Positions 2,034 through 29,988 of a DNA stretch of 30,771 nucleotides are shown here, piece by piece; within the stretch, counting starts at the first letter, position 1; each line of letters opens with the position of its first letter. The notes under the pieces are model-generated. The model did no database searches. It had not been told where the DNA came from and was given only the letters and a program-made list of their open reading frames with translations. This DNA is from a virus (lineage: Duplodnaviria; Heunggongvirae; Uroviricota; Caudoviricetes), in IMG/VR virus record IMGVR_UViG_3300004481_001615, one strand, 5' to 3'. The translations under genes and the position numbers were made by a program.

Positions 2034-2768
2034 CTGTCAGAATCAGATGTTCCAGTAGATGCCCAGTTTACACAGAAAATTAATATCGAGTATTTGATAT
2101 TGAAACAGATTGATAGATGCAATACAGCATCTCTCGAAGGTGATGAGGCTAGATTTAGTTATGCAGTAGAATCTCTGTTATCAATGTTACCTAAAGAACA
2201 CAGAGTAAAACTAGAGGCAGAACAGGCGAAAGAAGTATACACATCAAAAAGTGAGGATTATATCTATGCTTACTCGTGCGGAAAGCCTATGGGTTCACCA
2301 GAAAACCCGATATATCGAAATAAACCAACTGACTGGAATTATGATGGAGGAGAACCAATATTAGTTTCTCCTAGGTTGGAAGAGTCAGAAAATATAGATT
2401 ATCAGATACTTTATAGGATGATATTAGCAGAGTTGCAAGATGTTGGTGCAACATGGAAAGTAGAACCCAGAGATAATATAGGAAGAAGAATCAAGCCTGT
2501 CCCAACTCCATTAATAAAACTAAAAGATGGTAAAATGGTGAGAATTCTCATACAGAAAGGCATGGATGCACTCGAGGAAGTAGGAGGAGTGATTGAGGAT
2601 TCACAACCAGTAATAACTCCCTCTGAACCGGATGATGGAGGACCAACAGAAGAGGACTTCGAAGACGATGAAGATGACCAGGACCTAGATAAAGATGATT
2701 TAGAAGCTATGTTCCCAGAAGATAAAGAGGACGAGAAAGAAAATGACGGTACTGGAACCGATAAGTGA
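2034..2768 (+). CDS. Hypothetical protein with acidic C-terminal tail; probable CTG start (track start 2094)
   Basis: Frame is open back to 2019; AAGGAGGAG SD precedes the CTG at 2034, giving MSESDVPVDAQFTQKINIEYLILKQ...; D/E-rich tail. Confidence 0.75.
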   Translation: MSESDVPVDAQFTQKINIEYLILKQIDRCNTASLEGDEARFSYAVESLLSMLPKEHRVKLEAEQAKEVYTSKSEDYIYAYSCGKPMGSPENPIYRNKPTDWNYDGGEPILVSPRLEESENIDYQILYRMILAELQDVGATWKVEPRDNIGRRIKPVPTPLIKLKDGKMVRILIQKGMDALEEVGGVIEDSQPVITPSEPDDGGPTEEDFEDDEDDQDLDKDDLEAMFPEDKEDEKENDGTGTDK

Positions 2769-3783
2769 GTATCAGTTTATACCACCACCACCAGGATATA
2801 AGGGTACAAATAGATGGATAAATTGGCATGGTTTTGGCGTGGAGGTAGGTAGTGGTTACGGTCCTCATTTACTCAATGAGATACAGAGTAAGAAAGAGAA
2901 TATTGAAGCATGTATCATTGTTGTAACTGGTACAGGTGGTAAGGGTAAGACATATTTCTGTCTGAGACTAGCGGAGATATTTGATAGACGATTTGATGTA
3001 AGTATTCAGGTACCATTCGGTCCAGATGATTTTATGAAGTTAATCGGACCCGATTCATCACTGGGAATGGGTAGGGTTATTATTGTTGATGAGTCACAGT
3101 TCTCAATATCGAATCGTGATTGGTATGCTGACATACAAAAAGATTTGATGAAGCAGATTGAAGCTATTAGGTCGAAGGGATATATAATTTTCGTTGTTGC
3201 TCTCTCAGAATCGGTGCTTGATATCATTGCTAGAAACTACGTTACAACCCATAAAATACACTTGACAAAACGAGCACATGGTAGGGCTTATCAATATATC
3301 ATGGGCCCGTTCAGTAAAGCTCCGTTCCCCAAAACAATTACAAAAGATGCACAGATGGAACTACCGGGAGCAGAATATTGCGATTATCCTACCTGCCTGA
3401 AATGTAACTACTCTGGATTAAAGAAACGGTTCTGGGTTAGACGCAAGAATTGGGAGAAGCTTGGATATGTTATATGCCAAACAATCAGAGCAAAATATGA
3501 ACGGCACAAGAAGGAGTTCTTAGAACGGGTCGCAAAGGAATCAACCGAGAAGAGAGAAGGAAAAGTTGGAGCGAAAGCACTCAAGTTAACGGACCTGATT
3601 GAACTAGGAAGCAAGAATCCAAAGAAGTTACGGAAGTCTGCAAAGAATCGCATACAGCCTTTCAGTATGGTTGCGCTAGTAAGAGAAATTCTAGACTTGG
3701 AGGTATCTGAGAACTTGGCTGTCCGTGCATGTAGAGAGCTAGATTTAAGACCCGAGCTAGTTGAAAAGGTGCCTATAATATAG
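2743..3783 (+). CDS. P-loop ATPase, Zot/pI- or A32-like (FtsK-HerA superfamily); putative virion assembly or genome-extrusion ATPase
   Basis: Walker A GTGGKGKT (2929-2952), Walker B VIIVDES, and IRSKGYIIFVVAL...LDIIAR matching the R-x-x-G-hhhhh...D-x-x-x-R pattern; CxxxxCxxC cluster in the C-terminal half. Confidence 0.8.
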   Translation: MTVLEPISEYQFIPPPPGYKGTNRWINWHGFGVEVGSGYGPHLLNEIQSKKENIEACIIVVTGTGGKGKTYFCLRLAEIFDRRFDVSIQVPFGPDDFMKLIGPDSSLGMGRVIIVDESQFSISNRDWYADIQKDLMKQIEAIRSKGYIIFVVALSESVLDIIARNYVTTHKIHLTKRAHGRAYQYIMGPFSKAPFPKTITKDAQMELPGAEYCDYPTCLKCNYSGLKKRFWVRRKNWEKLGYVICQTIRAKYERHKKEFLERVAKESTEKREGKVGAKALKLTDLIELGSKNPKKLRKSAKNRIQPFSMVALVREILDLEVSENLAVRACRELDLRPELVEKVPII

Positions 3784-3958: not shown

Positions 3959-3982
3959 TAATCGTACATGATACTATTATAT

Positions 3983-4636
3983 ATGACAGGTAAAAATCAT
4001 AGGTCAATAGAGTTTAACGCGCCCCGAAGGTTCTTAGGTAATGAGGCTATCTTAAATTATTGGAGAATGGCTAAGACTCTAGACGAAGAATCTGGGGAGA
4101 ACCAGTGCGAGTTATACTTCGTGATATTGTGGGAAACGGGTGCTAGGATTGGGGAGGTCTTGAACCTAGAACCTAACCAAATTACGTGGAACAATGAGGC
4201 TATCCTAATTGATAGAATGATGGTGTTAAAAAGAAGGAAGCGTTTTGTACGTGATGTGCTCATAAAACGAGACGATAAAGACCCGCTCGCCGAGGTGTTT
4301 GTCAATTATGTTAAGGAGTGCAATACCTCATACCTGCTCCCAGCACATAAAAAGTTCACGAAAGACATCATACCGAACAAGCACGTCAGCATGTACCCAA
4401 TATACACGAGGATTGTGAGAGTAGCCGACCCAACATTGAGCAAGAAGAGCATTTGGCCTCACCTGATTAGAGACCAGCGGGCTTTCTTCTTAAAAGAGAT
4501 TAGGGGATTGGATGTGTATGAACTACAGAAATGGTTCGCTTGGGCGAGGATGGAACAGGTTATGCACTATGTAGGTAATCCAGACACAGCAATGCTAGCG
4601 AGTAAGATGGGTATCAAAGAGGTACCCAAACAGTGA
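3983..4636 (+). CDS. Tyrosine recombinase/integrase, catalytic domain only (track start 3968)
   Basis: ETGARIGE (R), VLKRR (K), PHLIR (HxxR), FAWAR (W in place of the second His), MHYV (Y); no room for an N-terminal core-binding domain. Confidence 0.85.
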   Translation: MTGKNHRSIEFNAPRRFLGNEAILNYWRMAKTLDEESGENQCELYFVILWETGARIGEVLNLEPNQITWNNEAILIDRMMVLKRRKRFVRDVLIKRDDKDPLAEVFVNYVKECNTSYLLPAHKKFTKDIIPNKHVSMYPIYTRIVRVADPTLSKKSIWPHLIRDQRAFFLKEIRGLDVYELQKWFAWARMEQVMHYVGNPDTAMLASKMGIKEVPKQ

Positions 4637-4757
4637 CTACCTCAACAACAAAACCAACACCAAATAACCACTGTATGATAAGCATTAAGAAAACAGCTAT
4701 GATAGTGAAGAGGAGTAGCCCCTTGTCTGATTCCTCCACTTCTCTAACTTCACTCAT
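4614..4757 (-). CDS. Small membrane protein, 47 aa (not in track): MSEVREVEESDKGLLLFTIIAVFLMLIIQWLFGVGFVVEVVTVWVPL
   Basis: Translated by hand; TAATG overlap with the upstream ORF; long hydrophobic stretch; overlaps the recombinase 3' end convergently. Confidence 0.6.
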   Translation of the reverse strand: MSEVREVEESDKGLLLFTIIAVFLMLIIQWLFGVGFVVEVVTVWVPL

Positions 4758-4915
4758 TATTCTTTCTCCTGTCTCAGTTTAGGTTGTAATGAACGTTTCA
4801 AACCAATTCGCCTAAGCCCTTCTCTAAATTCTTCTAACTCTTTTAATCGCTTTTCTAGGTCCGCAATCTTAACTTCTAGTGCTTTAATCTTTAAATCTCT
4901 CGAAGAATTACTCAT
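4757..4915 (-). CDS. Small coiled-coil protein (52 aa, MSNSSRDLKIK...; track start 4963 is probably too long)
   Basis: Heptad pattern LKIKALEVKIADLEKRLKELEE; ATGA overlap with the 4912-5052 ORF. Confidence 0.7.
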   Translation of the reverse strand: MSNSSRDLKIKALEVKIADLEKRLKELEEFREGLRRIGLKRSLQPKLRQEKE

Positions 4916-5052
4916 TTTTCGTTCTGCATCTCCTTTAGGACATCTAGTGGTAAACCAATACATCTAGCGACCCACTCATCGGTCATCAAGTGAGCACCTC
5001 TGGGCAGGTTTTTTACTTTGTACTTTTTTCCTTTCCATTCTATTATTGGCAT
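4912..5052 (-). CDS. Small hypothetical protein, 46 aa (not in track): MPIIEWKGKKYKVKNLPRGAHLMTDEWVARCIGLPLDVLKEMQNEK
   Basis: Translated by hand; AAGGAG SD; fills the gap exactly with an ATGA overlap. Confidence 0.7.
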   Translation of the reverse strand: MPIIEWKGKKYKVKNLPRGAHLMTDEWVARCIGLPLDVLKEMQNEK

Positions 5053-5053
5053 T

Positions 5054-5254
5054 TTATCTAACACTCCTTTCATTTAAAATTGTGAGAATTCTCGCTTTTT
5101 CTCTTTTCAGTTTTCTATTGAACATTGTATCTGTGCTCTGTTTTTTAGTCTCTGATTTTTGGTTATATCTTATGGAATCTAATGTGATTTCTCTTAACCT
5201 AGATTGTAGTTGGTCATTACTCATATTTCGTAAATCAACCATATTTTTATTCAC
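5054..5254 (-). CDS. rpl29: Ribosomal protein uL29 (L29/L35) homolog
   Basis: DLRNMSNDQLQSRLREI...RKLKREKARILTILNER matches the uL29 pattern (ELRxxSxxELxxxLxEL...IRxxRxxIARIxTxLxER) over its full length; GTG start overlapping the upstream TGA (alternative ATG at 5242). Confidence 0.75.
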   Translation of the reverse strand: MNKNMVDLRNMSNDQLQSRLREITLDSIRYNQKSETKKQSTDTMFNRKLKREKARILTILNERSVR

Positions 5255-5850
5255 GTATTACCACCTCCTCTTACAACCTCTGAGATATAATGAACTGGGC
5301 ATTGGTGTTCCCCAGCATGGTTTTCTGTCCCTCCACACTGCGCTCCACACTCGGGGCATTTCCATGCACACTGTATCGGAAGAAACTTTTCCAAACTAAT
5401 AGTATAGGAAAAGTGCTTGTAATCATATTTCTGTCTTGCTTTCTCGTATTCATCTTTGTTATCGGGATACATTTTCTCAAAATCCATGTCTGTCGTGACT
5501 ATAGCTATTGGTGTTCTGTCTCCTCTGACCGCAGTATATCTGCTGTATAAGTACGGTATCCGGTGTCCTTTCCTAGGGGTATCAACACTTATTTTGTTGT
5601 TTCTTCTTAGCTCTTCCTCCTCTGACGGCGTCAGAACCAAAAACCTGCCGATAAACAAGACATCATCAATCTTACGACCGTGTTGGACTAGCGATGGGTC
5701 ATGTGACATAAGGTGCCGTGATGCGGCCCCCTTTGATTGTAGTCGTTGCCACTTTTCTGTGTGGTAACCATATAACTTACCACATATCGGGCATTCCCAC
5801 GACCATCCATTCTCACCAACTTTTATTAATTTTAGTTTTGGTTTCAACAT
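5251..5850 (-). CDS. Zinc-finger protein (N-terminal C2H2, C-terminal Cys/His cluster)
   Basis: CPIC...RHLMSH and CPECGAQC...H...HQCPVH. Confidence 0.8.
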   Translation of the reverse strand: MLKPKLKLIKVGENGWSWECPICGKLYGYHTEKWQRLQSKGAASRHLMSHDPSLVQHGRKIDDVLFIGRFLVLTPSEEEELRRNNKISVDTPRKGHRIPYLYSRYTAVRGDRTPIAIVTTDMDFEKMYPDNKDEYEKARQKYDYKHFSYTISLEKFLPIQCAWKCPECGAQCGGTENHAGEHQCPVHYISEVVRGGGNT

Positions 5851-5857
5851 TTTTTCA

Positions 5858-6079
5858 TCACCAAGTACATTTGACTTCTCCTTTAATCATTTTGGCCATT
5901 ACTTCTTGAGGAATTTTTTGTTCTCTTGTATTGAAAGCAATCTCAAGTGCTTCTTGATACTTATCCCAAGCGGTTGTAATACTTTCTCTATATTCTTTGT
6001 AGGCAGGGTGGTTTTCTTCAATAAACACTCTCCTAGCAATAACAGACTCATCATGTTTCTGATATAATTCATACTTCAT
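5858..6079 (-). CDS. Hypothetical protein (73 aa)
   Basis: ATGA-coupled member of the operon. Confidence 0.75.
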   Translation of the reverse strand: MKYELYQKHDESVIARRVFIEENHPAYKEYRESITTAWDKYQEALEIAFNTREQKIPQEVMAKMIKGEVKCTW

Positions 6080-6089
6080 TTTTCATTCA
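6076..6089 (-). repeat. Gene-junction motif TGAATGAAAAATGA (exact copy)
   Basis: Plus strand tcatttttcattca; contains the stop of 6076-6297 and the ATG of 5858-6079. Confidence 0.85.
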
Positions 6090-6297
6090 ATCCTATTTGT
6101 CTCTTTCTAATGTTGTACTGATTAAACAAAATATTCCTAATTTCCTCAGATAGTGCAACAATACGCAAGTCTTTACCCTCAAATAATCTGAGTTTATCAA
6201 AGTATGTTGGATTTTTTATCAGCATATCTAATATTGCTTTAGCACATTTTTCTGACGCTTCGTTTACTGTCTTAACTTGATATTCTAAAGTCTTCAT
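6076..6297 (-). CDS. Hypothetical protein (73 aa)
   Basis: ATGA-coupled on both sides; ends NEK. Confidence 0.75.
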   Translation of the reverse strand: MKTLEYQVKTVNEASEKCAKAILDMLIKNPTYFDKLRLFEGKDLRIVALSEEIRNILFNQYNIRKRQIGLNEK

Positions 6298-6307
6298 TTT
6301 TCATTCA
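6294..6307 (-). repeat. Gene-junction motif TGAATGAAAAATGA (exact copy)
   Basis: Plus strand tcatttttcattca at the 6294-6797/6076-6297 junction. Confidence 0.85.
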
Positions 6308-6797
6308 CTACCCTAATAGTACTATATCCCCCATTACATTGTGGGCTAACTTTCGTATGATTGTCTGTAATCTTACGTACCACCGACATGACATCTTCGT
6401 GCTCCTCATACTCTACTTTACCAGACATTTTACAAGTTTCGCAGAACCACTTTTGTTCACCTGTTCTTTTAATAGACCCCACAAGTTGGAATGAATTATC
6501 AATCTCTTCCTGTGTTGGTTTGTATCCATATGTGAGTCTTCTAAGACCTTCTGTCTGTCTTTGCTTAGACCACTCTACAAGTTTCTTAAAATCTTTCTTA
6601 CTGGTAACATTGGGTGGTATTCCTGTATTCCACCCACAATCAGAGCAAACCCACCAAGTATAAGAGATAAAAGAGGCTAGGCCTTCTTTTGGTAACCACG
6701 GAGCTATTGGAATGTTTTGAATGAAGTGATTGAATTTTACTCCCTTACATTTTGGGCAACATAACTGTTGTGGTTCTGAACTTACTTCTTTAATCAT
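6294..6797 (-). CDS. Zn-ribbon protein (two metal-binding clusters)
   Basis: CPKC...CSDC and CETC...H...C; ends NEK. Confidence 0.8.
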   Translation of the reverse strand: MIKEVSSEPQQLCCPKCKGVKFNHFIQNIPIAPWLPKEGLASFISYTWWVCSDCGWNTGIPPNVTSKKDFKKLVEWSKQRQTEGLRRLTYGYKPTQEEIDNSFQLVGSIKRTGEQKWFCETCKMSGKVEYEEHEDVMSVVRKITDNHTKVSPQCNGGYSTIRVVNEK

Positions 6798-6799
6798 CT

Positions 6800-7045
6800 T
6801 TATTCGACTCCTTCAAATTTAACATCCCATTGAACACCAACAATAAACGCTATATGTAGTGCCTCGTAGATTGTTAATTCCTTATTCTTGACTGCAAATT
6901 CTAGTACTGTAATGGTATATCTCTGATTTTTATTTTCTAGCTTTTCATGATACCATTTACTGATTTTTTCTGTCTCCATGACTTTAACTGACTCGAATAA
7001 TAGTTCATTCTTCTTATACACTTCTTTAGCCCGTTTTACGTCCAT
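6800..7045 (-). CDS. Hypothetical protein (81 aa)
   Basis: Tightly packed operon member. Confidence 0.75.
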   Translation of the reverse strand: MDVKRAKEVYKKNELLFESVKVMETEKISKWYHEKLENKNQRYTITVLEFAVKNKELTIYEALHIAFIVGVQWDVKFEGVE

Positions 7046-7048
7046 GTT

Positions 7049-7255
7049 CTACACATCCTCCTTTACAACCAAAGAAGATTGTAACTCCCCTATATTTTTT
7101 TCTATTCTTTCTAGTCTATGCATCAAGTGTGAGGTTTTGGTAAACTCCCTATCATACCCATCCAATCCCCTTTTCAGCTTATCAATTTTGCTGTCTAGGT
7201 ATATGAACAGATTTAGTATAGTGAAACCAATTACCACCCATTCCATTAATTCCAT
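7049..7255 (-). CDS. Small protein with N-terminal TM helix and coiled coil
   Basis: WVVIGFTILNLFIYL followed by LDSKIDKLKRGL...LERIEKNIGELQ. Confidence 0.75.
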   Translation of the reverse strand: MELMEWVVIGFTILNLFIYLDSKIDKLKRGLDGYDREFTKTSHLMHRLERIEKNIGELQSSLVVKEDV

Positions 7256-7623
7256 CTTTCCACCACCAACATAAACATAGTATAACCCCTAGTTATTTCT
7301 GTAACCGTCCATTCACCACCCTGCATATAGACACGTGTTCCAATACTCAATGGTACTTTTGACATTGGAGAGAGTATTTTATTGATTCCACCCCACATCT
7401 CTAAATATGCTGTATTATTACTGTAATTTAATACGTATCTTGTATTACCACTATCCCATATCAGGTAACTCCCCGTTATGAACTTTAGGGTTATTGGTCT
7501 CTCTATGCTTGGTTCTTGATTAGCGAAACCAGCACCCAAGAAATCAGTGATGAAGTTCATGGATAAAGTAAAAATAGTACAAATAGCTATAACCACCACA
7601 ATTTTTATTGTCTTTTCATTCAT
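7246..7623 (-). CDS. Membrane-anchored or secreted hypothetical protein
   Basis: N-terminal hydrophobic IVVVIAICTIFTLSM; ATGA coupling. Confidence 0.75.
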   Translation of the reverse strand: MNEKTIKIVVVIAICTIFTLSMNFITDFLGAGFANQEPSIERPITLKFITGSYLIWDSGNTRYVLNYSNNTAYLEMWGGINKILSPMSKVPLSIGTRVYMQGGEWTVTEITRGYTMFMLVVERWN

Positions 7624-7892
7624 TTTTCATCAAGCACCTTCTCGAGTTCATCTCTCCATTGATTTATTTTGTCATAATCGTATTTATATTCGGGTATTAA
7701 TCCTAATCCTTCTGCTGTTCTTGGTATTGGTATCTTCTCGGGGCGTGGAAAATTATTTATGTGGTTTCTCACTTTAGTAAGTTTAGATTCAAGAACCTCA
7801 ACTTCATTAATTACAGCTTCGTCTTTATCATTTAGCCCGAAATCAGGGTCATTAAGCCTCAGAGCTATTCTCTCGCTTAGTTTTTCACTCAT
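7620..7892 (-). CDS. Hypothetical protein (90 aa)
   Basis: GGTGA SD; ends DEK with an ATGA overlap. Confidence 0.75.
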   Translation of the reverse strand: MSEKLSERIALRLNDPDFGLNDKDEAVINEVEVLESKLTKVRNHINNFPRPEKIPIPRTAEGLGLIPEYKYDYDKINQWRDELEKVLDEK

Positions 7893-7902
7893 TTTTCATT
7901 CA
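7889..7902 (-). repeat. Gene-junction motif TGAATGAAAAATGA (exact copy)
   Basis: Plus strand tcatttttcattca; here the TGA stop of 7900-8088 opens the motif and the ATG of 7620-7892 closes it. Confidence 0.85.
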
Positions 7903-8088
7903 CCTTTCTTTAAGTCTTATACCATGTTTCCAAATAACAACGTCTTCTAATGACATTGCGTTCTTTGAAGAAGTGTAAACATATTCTATTTCGAAACTAT
8001 GTCCCTTCTTGCTTACAGTGAAAGCTGACCATGACTCTCCTTTATCAAGTGCTTTTTTAATTTCCTTAATAAGTTGTTCTTTATTCAT
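7900..8088 (-). CDS. Hypothetical protein (62 aa)
   Basis: GGTGAATGAAGAATG SD/junction variant upstream. Confidence 0.75.
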   Translation of the reverse strand: MNKEQLIKEIKKALDKGESWSAFTVSKKGHSFEIEYVYTSSKNAMSLEDVVIWKHGIRLKER

Positions 8089-8108
8089 TCTTCATTCACC
8101 ATCTGAAA

Positions 8109-8555
8109 CTACCATGGTTCTATTCTATTAAGCCTATTTTCAAATTCGAGATTTGTTTTTTTAAGAAGAGTAATCTCTTTATTGAGGTCCTCGATATAAC
8201 TAATAACAAGTCGTAACGCTTCATCGGTATGGTTCGCCGGATATAGTAACTTTTTCGCTTCCTCTAGACTAAAAAAGACATGACGAATGCTCGGTTTCTT
8301 TATTGTAAGTTCTTTGGGACCAATATGGTTGATTTTGATGTCTTCTGCGGGTGATATCTTAACCTTCAGTGCTAACCATTTTTCGAACGCAGTAGAGTAG
8401 TGACCATTAATAAAACCATCGTAAGACCGTTTACCTATTATAGCGTTTGCTAACTCATTGCCGATAAGAATCGAGGCTTTTTCGTTCGCTACTTCTTCAA
8501 GATACTCCACGCGTAAGTAAACAACTTTCTTTCTGCTCATGACAATTACTCCCAT
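8109..8555 (-). CDS. Hypothetical protein with C-terminal coiled coil (alternative start 8540)
   Basis: Operon member; YIEDLNKEITLLKKTNLEFENRL. Confidence 0.75.
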   Translation of the reverse strand: MGVIVMSRKKVVYLRVEYLEEVANEKASILIGNELANAIIGKRSYDGFINGHYSTAFEKWLALKVKISPAEDIKINHIGPKELTIKKPSIRHVFFSLEEAKKLLYPANHTDEALRLVISYIEDLNKEITLLKKTNLEFENRLNRIEPW

Positions 8556-8806
8556 TTATCCTTCGTTGATTGTTTTAGAACATATCCCTTATGCTCTTTG
8601 ACCCACCCCACGGTCGAGATGCCACGATTCCATACCCAATTTAGACTGCTATCGATTAAGCCACCCGCTCTCTTGGCTACCTCAATCAGTACGATTGTGA
8701 GCACAACACCCAATAAGAGCCACTTCACTAGGTTATAGAAACCGTCATCGTCTTCCATCTTCTCTAACGCCCACTCTGCGAGAGATTGAACGTCATATTT
8801 ACTCAA
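8546..8806 (-). CDS. Single-TM hypothetical protein (TTG start)
   Basis: LVKWLLLGVVLTIVLIEVA. Confidence 0.7.
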   Translation of the reverse strand: MSKYDVQSLAEWALEKMEDDDGFYNLVKWLLLGVVLTIVLIEVAKRAGGLIDSSLNWVWNRGISTVGWVKEHKGYVLKQSTKDKWE

Positions 8807-8835
8807 ATTTCCAACATCCCTTTATCCATTACCAT
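8803..8835 (-). CDS. Possible 10-aa leader ORF MVMDKGMLEI
   Basis: ATG 31 nt after the promoter TATA; its TGA overlaps the TTG start at 8806 (TTGA). Confidence 0.35.
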   Translation of the reverse strand: MVMDKGMLEI

Positions 8836-8865
8836 TCTTCTCTGATAAAGCATATATCCAAGACA

Positions 8866-8881
8866 TTTATAAATGTTATGA
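8866..8881 (-). promoter_or_regulatory. Conserved promoter module copy (TCATAACA-TTTATAAA) heading the small-gene operon
   Basis: Exact tttataaatgttatga; contains the TAA stop of 8876-10864; 14-bp palindrome acatttataaatgt at 8863-8876. Confidence 0.85.
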
Positions 8882-10864
8882 TAAATGACGTCTATGCCCC
8901 ATCACCTCTAGTATGGTGTCTATCTCGGAGAGAACGAGGAGAACAACCACAACAACAACAAATGAGGTAGCATAGTTTGTTAGTACTGTTGTGTTACTCA
9001 GCCATAGAGAGTCAAAGAACTCTGGGAGAATCCACCTATTCAAACCGAACCTACTCAGTGCCTCAATAAACCGATTCATACCTACACCATTGACCGACGT
9101 CATAGTGTAACCGAGTAATCGATTAGTTGAAATGAGCATATTGGAGATTAACCCGAGTAGAAACAGTGCAGTATAGGAGAGTATATAAGGTCTAGTCTTA
9201 AAAAACCTCACGGCACCCAGAATGAAGGGCACTGAGATTAGGGGAAGTATAGGTAAAAGATATCTCCCAGGAGGTGCTAACCACCCATTCCAGTATGTTG
9301 AGGCCGAAATTGCACCGACCCAGAAGATAATAAACGCTATGGTGAGATAAGTGCCGGTCTCTCTCAAAGAGATTAATCTAGTGACCCCTAGTAGAGCAAG
9401 AATTAAGATTGGACCGTAAAATAAGATGCCACAATTATAATCTAAGAACAGACCAACAGCACTCAAGATAAACTCTTTATTTACGTTATAGCCAAATAAG
9501 GGTATTGTTTTAACACCTACATCACCAATATAGGCACCAAGCATCACAATACTATTAAAACCAACATAGAGATAAGTGTGGATGTAAAATAGTGTGAAGG
9601 GAAATATAAGGGCAATAACCGAGTATAACTGTTTCTTGTTCTTTATCGAGGTTATGAGTAGGATGATTATCGAGAGTACGGTGAGATACATTGCTTGATA
9701 TTTGAAGAAGGGTAGCACCCCAAAGGAGAATCCAGCTATCAGATAATCCGACCTAGATTCAGCAGTGTAAATCTTGTACATACCGAGGATGATGAAGAAG
9801 GCTAAGACAGGTTCAGAAAAGACTTGACCTGACCAGACAAACAAAAGGGTTGAAAGTGCGAAAGCACCAGCGGTGAGCAGTGAAGCAAGCATATTACCCT
9901 TACTTAGATATAGGGATAACTTGTAGATTATTGACACTGTACCTGCCATCAACAGGCACATAAAGATTAAGACCCCAGCAGTACTCGAGTAGAGGAGGTG
10001 CTCACCTAGGAAGTAAGGGATAGCTAAAAGCACTGGTAAGCCTATGGGGTGCTTGAAAATCTCTGTCCCGTTGTTGAGCAGACCACCACTGATTTTTGTG
10101 TGCCGGTACTGGTTGGGTTCGTATATTGAGTCTGGACTCATATCACCTCGGAGGAATGCTGAGGTCGCCACGATGTAGTGGGGTTCATCACCAGTCAGGT
10201 AGAACCCACGGTACGGGTCAGCTTTCAGCCAAGGAGCATAGTTCATAAATAGAGCAGAAGTGTAGATAACAGCTATAACGAAAAAGAGGATATGTGAGAG
10301 TTGCTTTTGATTAGACGTCAATTTTTGTAATACAAACTCTCTATAGTACCACATCAATGGCAAGAGTGCTAGGAACGTGATACAGATTATGGTGATACTA
10401 TCTATGGAGATAAACTGTGGTAGATAAACACTCTTCCCCGCGTTTATCCTGGTTTTTAGTGGTCGGGTAATACCTGACGATATTTTGGTTCCGTTGGGTG
10501 TAGTGTAGTCGAAGACACAAGCAAAATCCCCTGACTCTCCGACCTGAGCATTATCTGGAACAGCAATCTCTATCTGTTGATTGTATGTCTCACTTGGATT
10601 GATGGTGATATTACATCTCAATATACTAAAGATATTTGGACCCATCCAGCTGTGATGTATCAGGATGTTATTGATGTGGATGTTCTCCACCATGTTGTTT
10701 GTTATTTTTATCGTCGCGTATGAGGAGTATCCCTGATAAAGACCTTCATCCCATACCCACTCAACTGCTAGGTTCGGCTCAGAGAGAACGGGCATAATGG
10801 AAAAAAGAATCAGAGTGAAGAGAAGCATGAAGGGTAGTTTGGTGGTCTTCACTTTATCCACCAA
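8876..10864 (-). CDS. GT-C fold (GT39/ArnT-like) membrane glycosyltransferase fused to an N-terminal Ig-like domain (alternative GTG start 10852)
   Basis: Signal/TM, beta-rich domain (ATIKITNN...INPSETYNQQIEIAVP), then about 12 TM segments with the GDEPHY acidic loop, KHPIGLP, FSEP and FFKYQ. Confidence 0.75.
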   Translation of the reverse strand: MVDKVKTTKLPFMLLFTLILFSIMPVLSEPNLAVEWVWDEGLYQGYSSYATIKITNNMVENIHINNILIHHSWMGPNIFSILRCNITINPSETYNQQIEIAVPDNAQVGESGDFACVFDYTTPNGTKISSGITRPLKTRINAGKSVYLPQFISIDSITIICITFLALLPLMWYYREFVLQKLTSNQKQLSHILFFVIAVIYTSALFMNYAPWLKADPYRGFYLTGDEPHYIVATSAFLRGDMSPDSIYEPNQYRHTKISGGLLNNGTEIFKHPIGLPVLLAIPYFLGEHLLYSSTAGVLIFMCLLMAGTVSIIYKLSLYLSKGNMLASLLTAGAFALSTLLFVWSGQVFSEPVLAFFIILGMYKIYTAESRSDYLIAGFSFGVLPFFKYQAMYLTVLSIIILLITSIKNKKQLYSVIALIFPFTLFYIHTYLYVGFNSIVMLGAYIGDVGVKTIPLFGYNVNKEFILSAVGLFLDYNCGILFYGPILILALLGVTRLISLRETGTYLTIAFIIFWVGAISASTYWNGWLAPPGRYLLPILPLISVPFILGAVRFFKTRPYILSYTALFLLGLISNMLISTNRLLGYTMTSVNGVGMNRFIEALSRFGLNRWILPEFFDSLWLSNTTVLTNYATSFVVVVVVLLVLSEIDTILEVMGHRRHLS

Positions 10865-10950: not shown

Positions 10951-10973
10951 TGATAGATTAAAAAGAAGAATGA

Positions 10974-10989
10974 TTTATAAATGTTATGA
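10974..10989 (-). promoter_or_regulatory. Conserved promoter module copy
   Basis: Exact tttataaatgttatga, directly abutting the TAA of 10990-11400. Confidence 0.85.
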
Positions 10990-11815: not shown

Positions 11816-14800
11816 TTATCTTCTCCTCTTACTAAATATCATTCCTATTACGAAGATTACCACTGGGACACATATCAGCCACCATGGTAACCCACCGTTC
11901 GGGATTACACCAACCACACTTGTTGAGATTAAACTTGTTGATGTTGACACAATACTCGTTGCGATTGTGGTACTCGTCACGCCTGCTACCACCGTCGTGG
12001 ATGTGCTACATGTAGTGGTGCACGTATCGGTCGTTGTGCACGTGGTTGTGGTCGTTTTGTATGTGCTTGTATTCGTCGAACAAGTTGTTTGGCACGATGT
12101 GGTCGTCACGATACTCGTTTCGCAACTTGTGGTGCACGATTGAGTAGTGGTGCACGTTGTTACACAACTTGATGTACATGTCGTAGTCGAGGTCTTGAAA
12201 GTTGAGCAGGTAGTGGTACATGTAACTGATGTTTCGACAGAGGTGGTACACGTCGTTGTACTGGTTTCTGATGTCTCATAGCTTGTTGTACATGTAGTAG
12301 TACAACTCTCAGATGTTTCTGTCGATGTCTCGCATAATGTGGTTGAGACCATTGAGGTATCTGTTGAGCAGGTGGTCGTGCTTGTCTTTGAGGTCTCAAT
12401 AGATGATGTACATGTGGTTGTGCTCGAAATACTAATGTACGTAGCTGTTGTTGTTGTACATGTGTCCACTGTTTCAGTAGAAGTTTCGCATGTGGTTTGA
12501 CACTCTGTCGTGTGAGTTACTGTCTCTGTTTCACATGTTGTTTCTGTTTCTGTTTCTGTAATTGTCTTGCAGGTGGTCGTAGATGTATCAGATGTTTCTA
12601 TTGAGGTTGAGCACGTCGATGTGCACGTGACGGAGGTCTCTGTTGATGTTGTACAAGTAGTAGTACAGGTCTCATTTGTTTCTGTCTCTGTTGTGCATGT
12701 GGTCGTACATGACTCTGATATTACGGTTTCTGTCAAACAGGTTGTGGTGCATAAATCAGATACAATTGTTTCTGTTTCACAGGACGTAGTACAAGAATCA
12801 CTCACTTCTGTTTCTGTAGAGCACAATGAGGTACAGGTCGTTGTGGATACTCTCGACGTGGTACAGGTGCTTGTGCACGTTGCTTCTGTTTCTGTATCTG
12901 TTGTGCAAGTTGAGGTGCAGGTATTAATTGTCACTGATTCTGTGCCACAGGTTGTCGTGCTACTCTCGGAGGTTTTAGTAGATGTTGTACAGGTTGTTGT
13001 AGAAACTTCTTCCTCTTTTGTTGTTGTAGAACATGTTGTGGTACTACTTTTCGACGTGCTTGTGGAGGTCGTGCAGGTAGATGTACACGTGCTGATAATT
13101 TCAGTTGATGAGGTACATGTCGTTGTGCAGAATGAGGACGATACTATTGTTGTATCACATGTTGTGGTGCTTGTCTCTGAGGTTTCTCTGAGCGTCGTGC
13201 ACGTAGTGGTACTCGTTTCTGAGGTTTCTACAGTGGTTGAACAGGTTGTAGTACATGATGTTTCGGTTTCTGTCTCAGTCACTGTTGAGCATGTAGATGT
13301 GCATGTAGTAGAGGATTTTACTGATGTTGTGCAGGTTGTGGTGCACATCTCATCTGTTTCAACAGAGGTTTCACAAGTAGTTGAGAGTAGTGTTGTAGAC
13401 GTAATAGATGTATCTGTCTCACATGTTGTGGTCGTGGTTTGTGATGTCTCGATAGAGGTCGTGCAAGTTGAGGTACAGGTTTGTGATGTCTCTCTTGATG
13501 TTGTGCACGTGGTAGTGCTGGTCTTTATCGTTGTTTTCGAGGTGGTACAGGTTGTTTCACATTCTGTAGAGGACACAATAGATGTGTCGCAAGTGGTGGT
13601 GCTTGTCTCAGAGGTCTCTGTTGAGGTAGTACATGTTGATGTACAGGTATTGAGTGTTTCGGTTTCGGTAGCACATGTTGTGGTACAAGAGTTCGATGTA
13701 CTAACGGTCGTAGAACAAGTGGTGGTACATGTATTGATAGATTTTACAGTTGTAGAACATGTGGTGGTACATGTATCACTACTCACAATGGTCGTTGAGC
13801 ATAGGGTTGTGCACATAGCGTCTGTCTTTATCGATGTTGAGCAGGTAGTGGTACTTGTGGCGTCTGTCTCTCTCTGGGTTGTGCATGTGGTGGTGCTTGT
13901 CTGAGATGTTTTTCTAGATGTGGTGCACGTAGTAGTACTTGTTTGGGATGTTTCACTATCTGTCTCACATTCGGTAGTAGATGAAATTGATGTAGCACAG
14001 ATAGTTGTGGATTCTGTGGACGATTTAATTGTAGTATCACATGTTGTGGTCGAGGCTGTTGAAGATTTAATTGTTGTGTCGCAGGTGGTAGTTGAAACAG
14101 TTGAGGATTTGATAGTTGTGTCGCAGGTGGTAGTCGAGGCTGTAGAAGACTCTATGGTTGTGTCGCAGATTGTTGTGGATTCGGTTGATGACTCAATAGT
14201 GGTATCACAAGTCGTTGTGGAAGCGGTTGAGGATTTGACAGTAGTATCACATGTGGTCGTAGATGAGGTGGAGGATATCACGGTCGTTTCGCTCGTGGTA
14301 GTAGAAATTGTGATGGAACTCTCCGTAGTGCTACATGTTGTACTTGATGAAATCGAGGTAACAAACGAGGACGTGCACGTTGTGGTCGATGTCTTAGCCG
14401 TTGTGCACGTGGTTGTGCTCGTCGATGAGGTAACCGACTGAGTAATAGATGTCTGTGTCACTGTTGCTAACGGGTCAACGATAATTAAGATAACGGTCCA
14501 GATTGTGATTGAATTGGTTGCAGAACTCTCGGTTGAGAGAATTGTTGTCGTTATTGTTGAGTGAGAAACTCCTGGTTTAAAGTAACCCATGACAAAATGA
14601 ACGTCTGTTGAACCAAATTCTGCCCAAACCTCAACAATACCATTAGCAGGATTACTGTTCACCGATACAGAGTATCCGTTAAACTCAGCATTATTTGCTA
14701 GGTCTGCTCCTTCTGACTCGTGGACATCAATGTATCTGACAAGAGCACTACCATCTGGCCGTACACCCTGTGTTCCTTCTGCACTCAACCCACCAAATAA

Positions 14801-16537
14801 TATAGCGCATGCAAGTATTCTGCCGTCCTCATCCATTAGTGCCGAGGCATCATAATTATACCATGTTCCGTATGCTTCTTGAGGAAGACTACTCCACAAC
14901 TCGACAAAATCTACTTCACTACTAAAGTAGCCGAAATCAATAATACGTTTAGTTGTTGTATCACTTAAGTAGTACTCAACAACATCATCGGCACTAGACT
15001 TGACATAAAATGTGAATATAGATGCTGAACCCGCCGCTCCTTCTGGTTCATGTAGAACAAAACTTCTTGTGATACTTGAACCATCTGTTCTTATACCAAC
15101 AGTAGATTTTGTGTCCTGTTCTACATTCTCTATCGCAACAGCATGGACTTTACCTCCATCTGTTCCTAAATCAAAGTTTGTCCACTCACCAATTGTTGAA
15201 ATTGTTGTTTTGGTAGCCTCCTCTGTAAAAGAGCAGTTCTCCCAATAACCCATTATGTAGAATACATGCACACTATCAGCATAATACTCTATATATCCTG
15301 TTGATGCATCGACCTGAACTGGCATTGTTACACAGACATAACCACCGCCCTCTGCTTCGTGTTGGTCAACATACCTAGTTAGAGATGACCCATCAGCACG
15401 CACACCTCCCTCATTTATTGAGTTTGTAGACCCGCCAGCGACCACAATCTCAGCAACGGCACCCTTTGGAACTCCTTTATTAGTATAGATGTCATAGTTA
15501 GGCCATGCTGTCTCGCCAGAGTCTGTCCAACTATTAATCATTTCTGTGTAGGTCATGTCTGGGTCGATACTAGCTATATTGGTTGGGAATATTGTGGTTA
15601 TTCCTTTACCGTTCCAAAAGTCTTCCTTTCCAGCATACCACTCAACATTACCAAATTGAGTTGTATCTAGACATAACCACTGACCATTCTCATTCCAACT
15701 CTGGGATTTTGCTACATAAAATTTATTACGAGAACCCTTACTAACTTGTTTATCTAATGTTGTGATATCTTGTAATGATTCATGCACTGGATTACCAGTC
15801 TCATCATAACTCGCTATTACTGGTGCTACTTCTGTGTGGTATTTATGTATGTTTGATGGAGTGACGACCCACATCCACCGGAAGTCTCCGATAATCCAAT
15901 CTGCTGTTTTTACTATAGAGACAGATATTTTTGGTGGTGCTGAGATACCGTTAAGCTCAAAATCTATAGTAGCATAGGCAATAATGTTTTTCTTTGGATT
16001 CACGGGAGAATAGATACTATATGTTAAACGATAAAGACTCGCATTTGCCACGGACACCGATATTGTTTTACCAAAATCTAAGAGAGGTAACCAAGTCGTA
16101 CCTGATAGATATTGGAGAACATAAACAGATTTAGTAACAACAACTTCACCATAGTGATTAGTGAAACTCAGCAAGTTTCCTGGTTGCATCCAGGTATAAT
16201 TCCCAAAGGGCGTAACATAAATGTAGTTTGACCCATCAAAAACAAGGGTAATAGAAGACATAGCATGGTTATATGAATATCCACGCTCGTGAGTAAATGG
16301 AACATACCCAAACTCACCACTACCATCACTTGTTATACCACGGGGGAAGTACTGGATATCATTTATCGTTACACCCGATGGCTGATAAGAGTAAAGTGGG
16401 TAATCGTAATCAACTGGTGGTGTTGGTGTTGGCGGGAGAACAGAAAAGTCTTCCCCAGAATAAACCATGGGGATTAAAAAGAATAACAGGAGTAGCCACG
16501 CCAAGAATTTCCTCTTTAAAAGACTACTCGACAGCAA
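11816..16537 (-). CDS. Giant (1573 aa) membrane-anchored surface protein: signal peptide, N-terminal beta-rich domain, three repeated domains, about 800-aa Thr/Ser/Cys stalk, C-terminal TM plus KRRR
   Basis: KRKFLAWLLLLFFLIPMVYS signal; repeats visible in the translation; C-terminus IPNGGLPWWLICVPVVIFVIGMIFSKRRR; TTG start with GGTGGTG SD. Confidence 0.9.
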   Translation of the reverse strand: MLSSSLLKRKFLAWLLLLFFLIPMVYSGEDFSVLPPTPTPPVDYDYPLYSYQPSGVTINDIQYFPRGITSDGSGEFGYVPFTHERGYSYNHAMSSITLVFDGSNYIYVTPFGNYTWMQPGNLLSFTNHYGEVVVTKSVYVLQYLSGTTWLPLLDFGKTISVSVANASLYRLTYSIYSPVNPKKNIIAYATIDFELNGISAPPKISVSIVKTADWIIGDFRWMWVVTPSNIHKYHTEVAPVIASYDETGNPVHESLQDITTLDKQVSKGSRNKFYVAKSQSWNENGQWLCLDTTQFGNVEWYAGKEDFWNGKGITTIFPTNIASIDPDMTYTEMINSWTDSGETAWPNYDIYTNKGVPKGAVAEIVVAGGSTNSINEGGVRADGSSLTRYVDQHEAEGGGYVCVTMPVQVDASTGYIEYYADSVHVFYIMGYWENCSFTEEATKTTISTIGEWTNFDLGTDGGKVHAVAIENVEQDTKSTVGIRTDGSSITRSFVLHEPEGAAGSASIFTFYVKSSADDVVEYYLSDTTTKRIIDFGYFSSEVDFVELWSSLPQEAYGTWYNYDASALMDEDGRILACAILFGGLSAEGTQGVRPDGSALVRYIDVHESEGADLANNAEFNGYSVSVNSNPANGIVEVWAEFGSTDVHFVMGYFKPGVSHSTITTTILSTESSATNSITIWTVILIIVDPLATVTQTSITQSVTSSTSTTTCTTAKTSTTTCTSSFVTSISSSTTCSTTESSITISTTTSETTVISSTSSTTTCDTTVKSSTASTTTCDTTIESSTESTTICDTTIESSTASTTTCDTTIKSSTVSTTTCDTTIKSSTASTTTCDTTIKSSTESTTICATSISSTTECETDSETSQTSTTTCTTSRKTSQTSTTTCTTQRETDATSTTTCSTSIKTDAMCTTLCSTTIVSSDTCTTTCSTTVKSINTCTTTCSTTVSTSNSCTTTCATETETLNTCTSTCTTSTETSETSTTTCDTSIVSSTECETTCTTSKTTIKTSTTTCTTSRETSQTCTSTCTTSIETSQTTTTTCETDTSITSTTLLSTTCETSVETDEMCTTTCTTSVKSSTTCTSTCSTVTETETETSCTTTCSTTVETSETSTTTCTTLRETSETSTTTCDTTIVSSSFCTTTCTSSTEIISTCTSTCTTSTSTSKSSTTTCSTTTKEEEVSTTTCTTSTKTSESSTTTCGTESVTINTCTSTCTTDTETEATCTSTCTTSRVSTTTCTSLCSTETEVSDSCTTSCETETIVSDLCTTTCLTETVISESCTTTCTTETETNETCTTTCTTSTETSVTCTSTCSTSIETSDTSTTTCKTITETETETTCETETVTHTTECQTTCETSTETVDTCTTTTATYISISSTTTCTSSIETSKTSTTTCSTDTSMVSTTLCETSTETSESCTTTCTTSYETSETSTTTCTTSVETSVTCTTTCSTFKTSTTTCTSSCVTTCTTTQSCTTSCETSIVTTTSCQTTCSTNTSTYKTTTTTCTTTDTCTTTCSTSTTVVAGVTSTTIATSIVSTSTSLISTSVVGVIPNGGLPWWLICVPVVIFVIGMIFSKRRR
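11990..14440 (-). repeat. Degenerate 42-bp/14-aa coding tandem repeat, consensus near [S/C]TTTC[T/S/D]T[S/T]x[E/K][T/S]Sx[T/S]
   Basis: Units such as STTTCDTTIKSSTA and CTTTCSTTVKSINT; 42-bp period clear at 14022-14147; roughly 55-60 units (estimated from length, not counted). Confidence 0.9.
14576..15556 (-). repeat. Three tandem domains of about 105-115 aa inside the giant protein
   Basis: Shared W-x-N-[YF]-D ... G-[VI]-R-x-D-G-S-x-x-x-R-x(4)-H-E-x-E-G ... G-Y-[WF]. Confidence 0.85.
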
Positions 16538-20970: not shown

Positions 20971-21002
20971 CTACGAATCTTAGAGAAATAAAGGTCTGAG
21001 TA

Positions 21003-21017
21003 TTTATAAATGTTATG
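21003..21017 (-). promoter_or_regulatory. Conserved promoter module copy
   Basis: tttataaatgttatg, 3 nt from the TAG of 21021-21146. Confidence 0.8.
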
Positions 21018-24708: not shown

Positions 24709-24732
24709 TCATAACATTAATAAATGTTATGA
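24709..24732 (-). promoter_or_regulatory. Palindromic promoter module copy
   Basis: tcataacatt-aata-aatgttatga: perfect 10-bp inverted repeat, abutting the TAA at 24733. Confidence 0.85.
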
Positions 24733-29227: not shown

Positions 29228-29246
29228 TATTTAAATGTTATGAGAA
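29228..29246 (-). promoter_or_regulatory. Conserved promoter module copy
   Basis: Exact 19-mer; contains the TAA stop of the XPF gene (TTC TCA TAA). Confidence 0.85.
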
Positions 29247-29948
29247 AATTTTCTTAAAATGATTGATAACTTTCTCTGCTGTACGCTTTCCAATATCTTC
29301 CATAATAAGGTCCTTCGGGTCAGAGAGTGCAATATTAAGCAGACTCCCCTTGGCTTTGAGTAGTGCACGGGCACGGTTCTCTCCCAAACCCCTTATTGCT
29401 AAGAGAGAACGAAGCACTGGTTTGCTATCCTCGGTCTGTCCATTCTCATCCTCGACCTGTGGTGGTGATAGAGGCTCAACTCGTATTAGGGGCTCAGAGA
29501 GTTTGTTGTTTGTCCGTTCTAGGATTTGAGCTAGGTCCCATATTGAATCAACCATCAGGAGGGAGACACTACCCTGCTCACCATCTTGTGAGTGCTTCAG
29601 GAATGTACCCACAATAGCGGAGAATACAGACTTTCTGTCAGCTCCCATTTCTTCGATTGCTGATGATATCGACCCCTCGATAATCACAGCAGAGTGCTTG
29701 AATGTTGTTGAGAGAGCATGGAGTTGGGTATGTAAGTGACCTGATAGGAGTGAACCAATAAAGTCTTTAGCAGACTTCCGTTCGTCGATAAAGAAGATGA
29801 CTTCACCATATTCTCCTGTCACTTTTATGGGATGACCACAAACCTGAGCATCGGCAATGTTGAGTCGGCACATCTCATAGGGTACGTTCATCGCGGAGAG
29901 GAGGACGGGAAGGTCTGAGGGAACCTCACGGTAGTCTAGATAAATCAT
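29238..29948 (-). CDS. xpf: ERCC4/XPF-Mus81 family structure-specific nuclease, short form (nuclease plus HhH2)
   Basis: LDYRE, IADA, ERKSAKD, HTQL, VIIEG, then IRGLGENRARALL and DIGKRTAEKV HhH motifs. Confidence 0.88.
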   Translation of the reverse strand: MIYLDYREVPSDLPVLLSAMNVPYEMCRLNIADAQVCGHPIKVTGEYGEVIFFIDERKSAKDFIGSLLSGHLHTQLHALSTTFKHSAVIIEGSISSAIEEMGADRKSVFSAIVGTFLKHSQDGEQGSVSLLMVDSIWDLAQILERTNNKLSEPLIRVEPLSPPQVEDENGQTEDSKPVLRSLLAIRGLGENRARALLKAKGSLLNIALSDPKDLIMEDIGKRTAEKVINHFKKIFS

Positions 29949-29972
29949 ATTAAAAAAATAGGGGATTGGTCG

Positions 29973-29988
29973 TTTATAAATGTTATGA
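29973..29988 (-). promoter_or_regulatory. Conserved promoter module copy
   Basis: Exact tttataaatgttatga; ATG at 29948 is 25 nt downstream; stop of 29991 is 2 nt away. Confidence 0.85.

Follow-up and report, generated by a model that had tools for sequence, protein, structure and literature searches.

Phages are known to encode homologues of ribosomal proteins, among them bS21, bL12, bL9, bL31, bL33, bS6, uS9 and uS15; 14 viral ones have been reported, and loosely bound, exchangeable proteins are enriched among them (Mizuno et al. 2019, PMC6375957). The cyanophage PhiMa05 encodes uL1, uL11, bL21, bL27 and bL33 (PMC13157829). In viruses of archaea, homologues of eL21 (L21e) were described in the haloarchaeal tailed viruses of the Hafunaviridae and called the first ribosomal proteins of archaeal viruses (Liu et al. 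2021, PMC8651126). The protein uL29 is mentioned neither by Mizuno et al. nor in the PhiMa05 paper, and literature searches on L29 in viral contexts returned no report of a viral uL29. A previous reading of the DNA studied here, made from the sequence only, had proposed that it encodes a viral uL29 and that this is not a commonly reported viral ribosomal protein, which agrees with its absence from these two papers.

One database entry was considered as a precedent and rejected at the sequence level. The BFVD entry A0A1Z1LZ61, named "50S ribosomal protein L29 [Serratia phage X20]" (70 aa), superposes on the model of our protein with a TM of 0.87 at 19% identity. The GenBank record of this phage (MF036692) has no L29 product, and none of the ORFs of its 172-kb genome matched uL29 profiles made from cellular sequences, from the clade described below or from both combined; the best profile hits (E ~0.015-0.3, at most 8 bits) lay inside unrelated long proteins. 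The name of the entry probably rests on the resemblance between helical hairpins. Short or unannotated records of Listeria, Staphylococcus, Enterococcus and Salmonella phages in the phage collection carry fragments of bacterial-type L29; these records are apparently host DNA submitted under phage names.

Our study concerns a stretch of 30.8 kb, hereafter the window, in which a small gene for a uL29-like protein lies among co-directional genes. The features of this locus are the following:

4912..5073, minus strand: downstream orphan gene, 53 aa, overlapping the uL29-like gene by 20 nt (ORF list)
5054..5254, minus strand: uL29-like gene, 66 aa, GTG start (Pfam and NCBIfam L29 matches, uL29 fold)
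5251..5850, minus strand: upstream orphan gene, 199 aa, two Cys clusters, zinc-ribbon-like (weak PHROG hit)
5262..5268, minus strand: Shine-Dalgarno-like GGAGGTG, 7 nt 5' of the GTG start and within the 3' end of the upstream gene (sequence reading)
4614..8806, minus strand: operon of 15 co-directional small genes, abutting or overlapping, including the uL29-like gene (ORF list)
8859..8880, no strand assigned: palindromic TATA-type promoter motif (ACATTTATAAATGTTATG) before the operon (motif count)

GTG was taken as the start of the uL29-like gene because the N-terminus of the protein (M-x-K-x-x-V-x-L-R) lines up with that of its relatives (M-K-x-x-V-x-L-R) only from this codon. This start overlaps the stop codon (TGA) of the preceding gene in the letters GTGA. 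The upstream protein has no Pfam family and was matched by PHROG weakly only. The uL29-like gene is the 12th of the 15 genes, counted from 8806 down to 4614, and Pfam and PHROG gave no function for the other 14. The promoter motif lies ~55 nt upstream of the start of the first gene at 8806, with no other copy between 495 and 8859, and from its sequence the operon is predicted to be transcribed from this single archaeal TATA-type promoter. The neighbours are coupled and virus-like, as had been proposed.

The rest of the window bears on the nature of the element, in particular through these features:

2743..3783, plus strand: P-loop ATPase of viral type (weak AAA_22; nearest protein-atlas clusters 75-100% viral, mostly Uroviricota)
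3968..4636, plus strand: tyrosine integrase, divergent, ~420 nt from the uL29-like gene (PF00589, E 1e-10; phrog_216 integrase)
29238..29948, minus strand: short XPF/ERCC4 nuclease with helix-hairpin-helix, viral type (PF02732 and HHH_5; nearest protein-atlas clusters 78-100% viral)
10971-10988, 21000-21017, 24710-24731 and 29970-29987: further ACATTTATAAATGTTATG-type sites (motif copies)

The motif ACATTTATAAATGTTATG has 19 copies in the window where 0.04 are expected by chance. Near-identical copies precede almost every transcription unit, the 19 sites spanning positions 57-29987. The window also encodes glycosyltransferases, a methyltransferase, a 1573-aa Thr/Cys-rich protein and a beta-helix protein, and ~35 of its 45 genes are orphans. 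Throughout the 30.8 kb we found no other ribosomal protein gene, no tRNA and no Rfam RNA, which bears out the earlier observation that no other ribosomal gene is nearby. The uL29-like gene, with flanks devoid of ribosomal genes, a place in a 15-gene orphan operon and an adjoining integrase, does not have the surroundings of the normal rpl29 of a host, the setting that the sequence-only reading had named as fatal to its proposal. Its claim that the gene is encoded by a virus holds in part. The ATPase and nuclease placed in mostly viral clusters, the integrase, the uniform promoter and the orphan genes speak for it, but no gene for a capsid, a portal or a terminase turned up in Pfam and PHROG searches of the window. 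The placement of the ATPase and the nuclease gives leads toward a viral origin rather than proof of it, and tblastn searches of the phage collection with the ATPase and the uL29-like protein gave no match. The window probably belongs to an archaeal virus.

The 66-residue protein is a true but divergent homologue of uL29. A search with the L29 profile had been suggested as the check on a full-length match, and the Pfam family Ribosomal_L29 (PF00831) matched the protein end to end (profile positions 2-57 of 57, E 5e-8, 33.2 bits), above the gathering cut-off of 24.5 bits. The C-terminus, in the ORF translation, is ...KARILTILNERSVR, as had been stated. The NCBIfam model TIGR00012 was passed at the border (22.7 bits for a cut-off of 22.6). 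When the uL29-like protein was used as a phmmer query against the PDB, it retrieved uL29 chains only, both bacterial and archaeal. An HMM made of cellular uL29 only gave it 71.9 bits (E 2e-22), and no other ORF of the window scored against this HMM. All 20 aligned members of the family matched PF00831. The AlphaFold2 model built from the family alignment (pLDDT 88) has helices at residues 5-9, 13-36 and 43-65, that is, a short N-terminal helix followed by a long antiparallel two-helix hairpin, which is the three-helix type of uL29. Each of the best 50 matches listed by Foldseek in the PDB was a ribosome structure, several with chains labelled L29 (TM 0.72-0.87, rmsd 1.3-2.8 A, ~60-69 aligned columns); their E-values are weak (at least 0.08) because the protein is short. 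The predicted fold is therefore that of uL29, not the different one that had been foreseen as a possible objection.

The protein has the length class, the three-helix fold and the basic character of cellular uL29 (archaeal L29P, bacterial RpmC/L29, eukaryotic L35; PF00831, TIGR00012). At the 20 best-conserved columns of the cellular alignment it has 14 identical residues, five conservative replacements and one change, although part of the agreement in the C-terminal helix follows from the way in which the cellular set was collected, through the ARILT motif. The signature LR..S..L ... ARI.T.L.E[RK] is retained, and the residues shared with cellular uL29 are L8, R9, S12, L16, L20, E22, L49, A54-R55-I56-L57-T58, L60, E62 and R63. 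The clade to which the protein belongs differs from cellular uL29 in other respects. Three strongly conserved columns are altered (E to Q, E to S, and F to R or a variable residue). SNDQL stands where cellular proteins have S-x-E-E-L, with Q in place of a conserved E, and a conserved Phe is lost. An invariant Arg (R29) takes the place of a hydrophobic residue of cellular proteins. A D-T-M-Y motif precedes helix 3. Most members of the clade have a Lys-rich C-terminal tail, which the window protein lacks, and the median net charge is +11.5 in the clade against +5 in cellular uL29. The sequence-only reading had also pointed to a divergent middle segment as a sign of altered function. The segment is real and corresponds to the loop at the tip of the hairpin (residues ~32-45). 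Yet this loop varies across the whole clade in sequence and in length (0 to ~20 extra residues), and is therefore a mark of the clade rather than a pointer to one new function.

A metagenome repeat protein of 1756 aa (P0005) showed four matches, within its residues 436-741, to residues 5-47 of the window protein (40-48% identity). The matching part is where the window protein departs from its own clade (LREITLDSIRYNQKSETKKQSTDT). We rejected P0005 as an L29-domain protein, the similarity being to this window-specific middle segment and amplified by repeats; the likeness probably arose by chance and was multiplied in this way.

Relatives of the protein are few. An exhaustive HMMER search of 1.84 billion representative proteins (E<1e-3) found 20 further proteins with 40-58% identity and none closer; a word-indexed homologue search recovered only the window protein itself, on a contig of 94,771 bp, a family scan of IMG/VR found no relative, and an exact DNA pattern had no hit there. 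More loci were added by scans of metagenomes and genomes. In the maximum-likelihood tree the window protein and 19 relatives share one branch (support 92/93), on which there is no cellular uL29 and of which the window protein is the first offshoot. The sister group of the clade was not resolved, so the tree failed to give the hint on the host that had been expected of it. A search of 43 genomes from the archaeal phylum whose cellular uL29 is closest recovered from each one copy in the operon and no second copy of the virus type. In one of these genomes the uL29 match (G005:C9:299642-299830) contains an in-frame TGA, which may reflect an error of sequencing, a pseudogene or recoding. The dN/dS ratio was 0.24 (L032/L033) and 0.13 (L032/L035) in the two pairs of genes that could be used, the remaining pairs being saturated at synonymous sites, and from these values the uL29-like genes look to be under purifying selection. 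Four remoter copies fall outside the core clade and have non-ribosomal contexts (L040, L041, L043 and L044). One of them (L043:1961-2191) lies directly 3' of a D5-type primase-helicase gene (L043:193-1734, DUF5906 and D5_N); its position beside this gene, outside the core clade, suggests that mobile elements may have captured uL29 more than once.

The uL29-like clade has so far been found only on virus-like elements. All 14 distinct members with visible context lie on virus-like metagenomic contigs with arrays of small orphan genes, and none of the 14 has uS3, uS17 or uL22 as a neighbour. Cellular hits, which include all those from binned genomes and a part of those from metagenomes, show instead the order uL22-uS3-uL29-Rpp29-uS17 or its bacterial equivalent; in contrast with these, the window gene stands outside the ribosomal cluster (uS3 to Rpp29/SUI1, uS17). 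No protein other than that of the uL29-like gene is common to the window and the contigs of its relatives (blastp, E<1e-3), and, duplicates aside, this is also the sole protein that these contigs share among themselves (blastp). No neighbour gene is conserved across the family. The GC content of the contigs ranges from 31 to 48%, and none of them has the promoter motif ACATTTATAAATGTTATG of the window.

The neighbours of these related genes include PCNA-like, AAA_24/Sak4-like and polymerase thumb domain proteins, DUF5131, RNase H, QueT and PAPS reductase, as well as glycosyltransferases, methyltransferases and intein-bearing radical SAM and aminotransferase genes. Such contigs also encode a dual-specificity phosphatase and a SIS domain. 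QueT and PAPS reductase were seen together in the region L081:7259-9193. The groundwater contig L031 encodes a B12-binding radical SAM enzyme with a LAGLIDADG homing-endonuclease domain (6764-9589) and a DegT-type aminotransferase with intein splicing and LAGLIDADG domains (13837-16449); both belong to a sugar-modification island with two MptE-like proteins. On another contig, the related uL29 gene is directly preceded by, and coupled to, a homologue of Arcadin-1 (L005:4963-5304). Arcadin-1 is a cytoskeleton-associated protein of Thermoproteales, and this neighbour may hint at a host of the Thermoproteota type for that contig. Several of the longer contigs, including that of the window, carry glycosylation genes and genes for large surface proteins.

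What could this protein do? With the uL29 fold and most of the conserved columns preserved, and with a more basic charge, it would most likely bind 23S rRNA where uL29 does, next to uL23 and at the edge of the peptide exit tunnel. Since the uL29-like gene is the sole gene shared between these elements, its partner should be something that the hosts conserve and the elements do not, and this, together with the ribosomal residues that it retains, is most simply explained by action at the uL29 site of the large subunit. We see an even chance that this is the gene for a functional uL29 paralogue specific to viruses, carried by an archaeal virus-like element of ~95 kb, and that its product binds the uL29 site of the host 50S subunit. 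The binding to the ribosome, the replacement of host uL29 and the effect on exit-site factors are what we infer from the features described above. In such a scenario, the gene would be transcribed within a long operon of small genes, possibly a module for host takeover, and the protein would replace host uL29 or join newly made subunits. Its surface, with the variable hairpin loop, the invariant Arg and, in most relatives, the Lys-rich tail, would then alter the docking of SRP, the Sec translocon, NAC and nascent-chain enzymes at the exit.

The platform at the tunnel exit on which SRP, the translocon, NAC and trigger factor dock is made up of uL23 and uL29. E. coli can do without uL29, and some reduced bacteria have lost it, hence its site may tolerate substitution. 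To our knowledge, uL29 is not one of the loosely bound, exchangeable ribosomal proteins that are enriched in viruses, and its swap into mature ribosomes may thus be hard. Elements carrying the gene may tamper with the exit site of the ribosome. A bolder version of this idea is possible, if doubtful: a uL29 lineage of archaeal viruses would have been kept across unrelated and fast-evolving genomes because it rebuilds the uL23/uL29 platform and redirects co-translational targeting or processing to viral membrane and secreted glycoproteins. The glycosylation and surface protein genes on the longer contigs fit what the sequence-only reading had proposed on the targeting of secretory proteins, as a correlation only.

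Small basic helical hairpins are able to bind many nucleic acids. The uL29 fold might have been recruited away from the ribosome, to serve the integration, replication or recombination of the element as a small and basic cofactor that binds nucleic acids or shapes their architecture, which we regard as unlikely. The model for such a role is E. coli, where uL29 is reported to assist TnsD of Tn7 by stabilising it and its binding to target DNA (PMC12372198). A role of this kind would agree with the very basic character of the clade, with the integrase at ~420 nt from the window gene, and with the PCNA-like, AAA_24/Sak4-like, polymerase thumb, D5-type primase-helicase and RNase H genes found near its relatives. 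However, the integrase adjoins the uL29-like gene in the window only, and since no neighbour is conserved throughout the family there is no candidate for a partner encoded by the elements. The residues that were retained are also those conserved in ribosomal uL29, which speaks against such a role.

A free look-alike of uL29 might also act as a decoy or competitor, titrating a host factor (for assembly, for the exit site, or a defence sensor) or blocking the assembly of the 50S subunit. The homology and the fold apply equally to this reading, the surface changes and the variable loop of the clade would suit selection for binding elsewhere than at the normal site, and an operon of orphan genes could be a module for host takeover. 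Yet no factor of this sort is known for archaeal uL29, and the basic character typical of rRNA binding has been raised in the clade, not lost. We thus hold a decoy to be distinctly improbable.

The absence of a capsid gene from the window leaves room for an ordinary archaeal rpl29 that was relocated from the ribosomal operon on a contig of cellular origin. We give this reading very little credit. The 30.8 kb hold ~35 orphans among 45 genes and neither ribosomal genes nor genes for tRNA or rRNA, a single rigid promoter motif recurs in 19 copies, an integrase is present, the ATPase and the nuclease group with viral clusters, the clade excludes cellular uL29, and its members come from unrelated contexts whose GC content goes from 31 to 48%. 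Finally, a chance helical hairpin without uL29 ancestry, for which one could invoke the commonness of such hairpins, the Foldseek E-values of at least 0.08 and the apparent look-alike in the X20 entry, is the least credible explanation of all, given that PF00831 is matched above its curated cut-off over the whole profile and by 20 of 20 relatives, that LR..S..L and ARI.T.L.ER are kept, and that ribosome structures make up the whole of the 50 best fold matches listed from the PDB.

If the protein is indeed a viral uL29 acting on the ribosome, several consequences follow. Most of the ribosomal proteins known to date from viruses are bacterial ones that bind loosely and act at initiation, at the stalk or in hibernation. 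A conserved viral protein of the exit rim in archaeal viruses would bring the phenomenon to a new host domain, and would extend it to the region to which SRP, the translocon and nascent-chain enzymes bind. On the bolder version given above, a virus would be seen for the first time to remodel the ribosomal exit site, and not initiation or the stalk. A protein of 66 aa whose counterpart is dispensable in E. coli makes incorporation and its effects directly testable. The clade could also mark poorly known large archaeal virus-like elements with genes for sugar modification and, in some cases, genes related to 7-deazaguanine.

Overall, the uL29-like gene resembles the ribosomal protein genes of phages (PMC6375957, PMC13157829), which also encode short homologues, stand alone in variable contexts and are under apparent purifying selection. 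The latter come from bacterial viruses and are mostly loosely bound proteins, whereas that of the window is probably archaeal and would sit at the rim of the exit tunnel. With the eL21 of the Hafunaviridae it shares the condition of a ribosomal protein homologue, there in archaeal viruses and here in probable ones. The two differ in that eL21 belongs to another site of the ribosome, in the region of 5S rRNA, and is found in cultivated haloviruses, whereas the uL29-like proteins come from uncultured elements.
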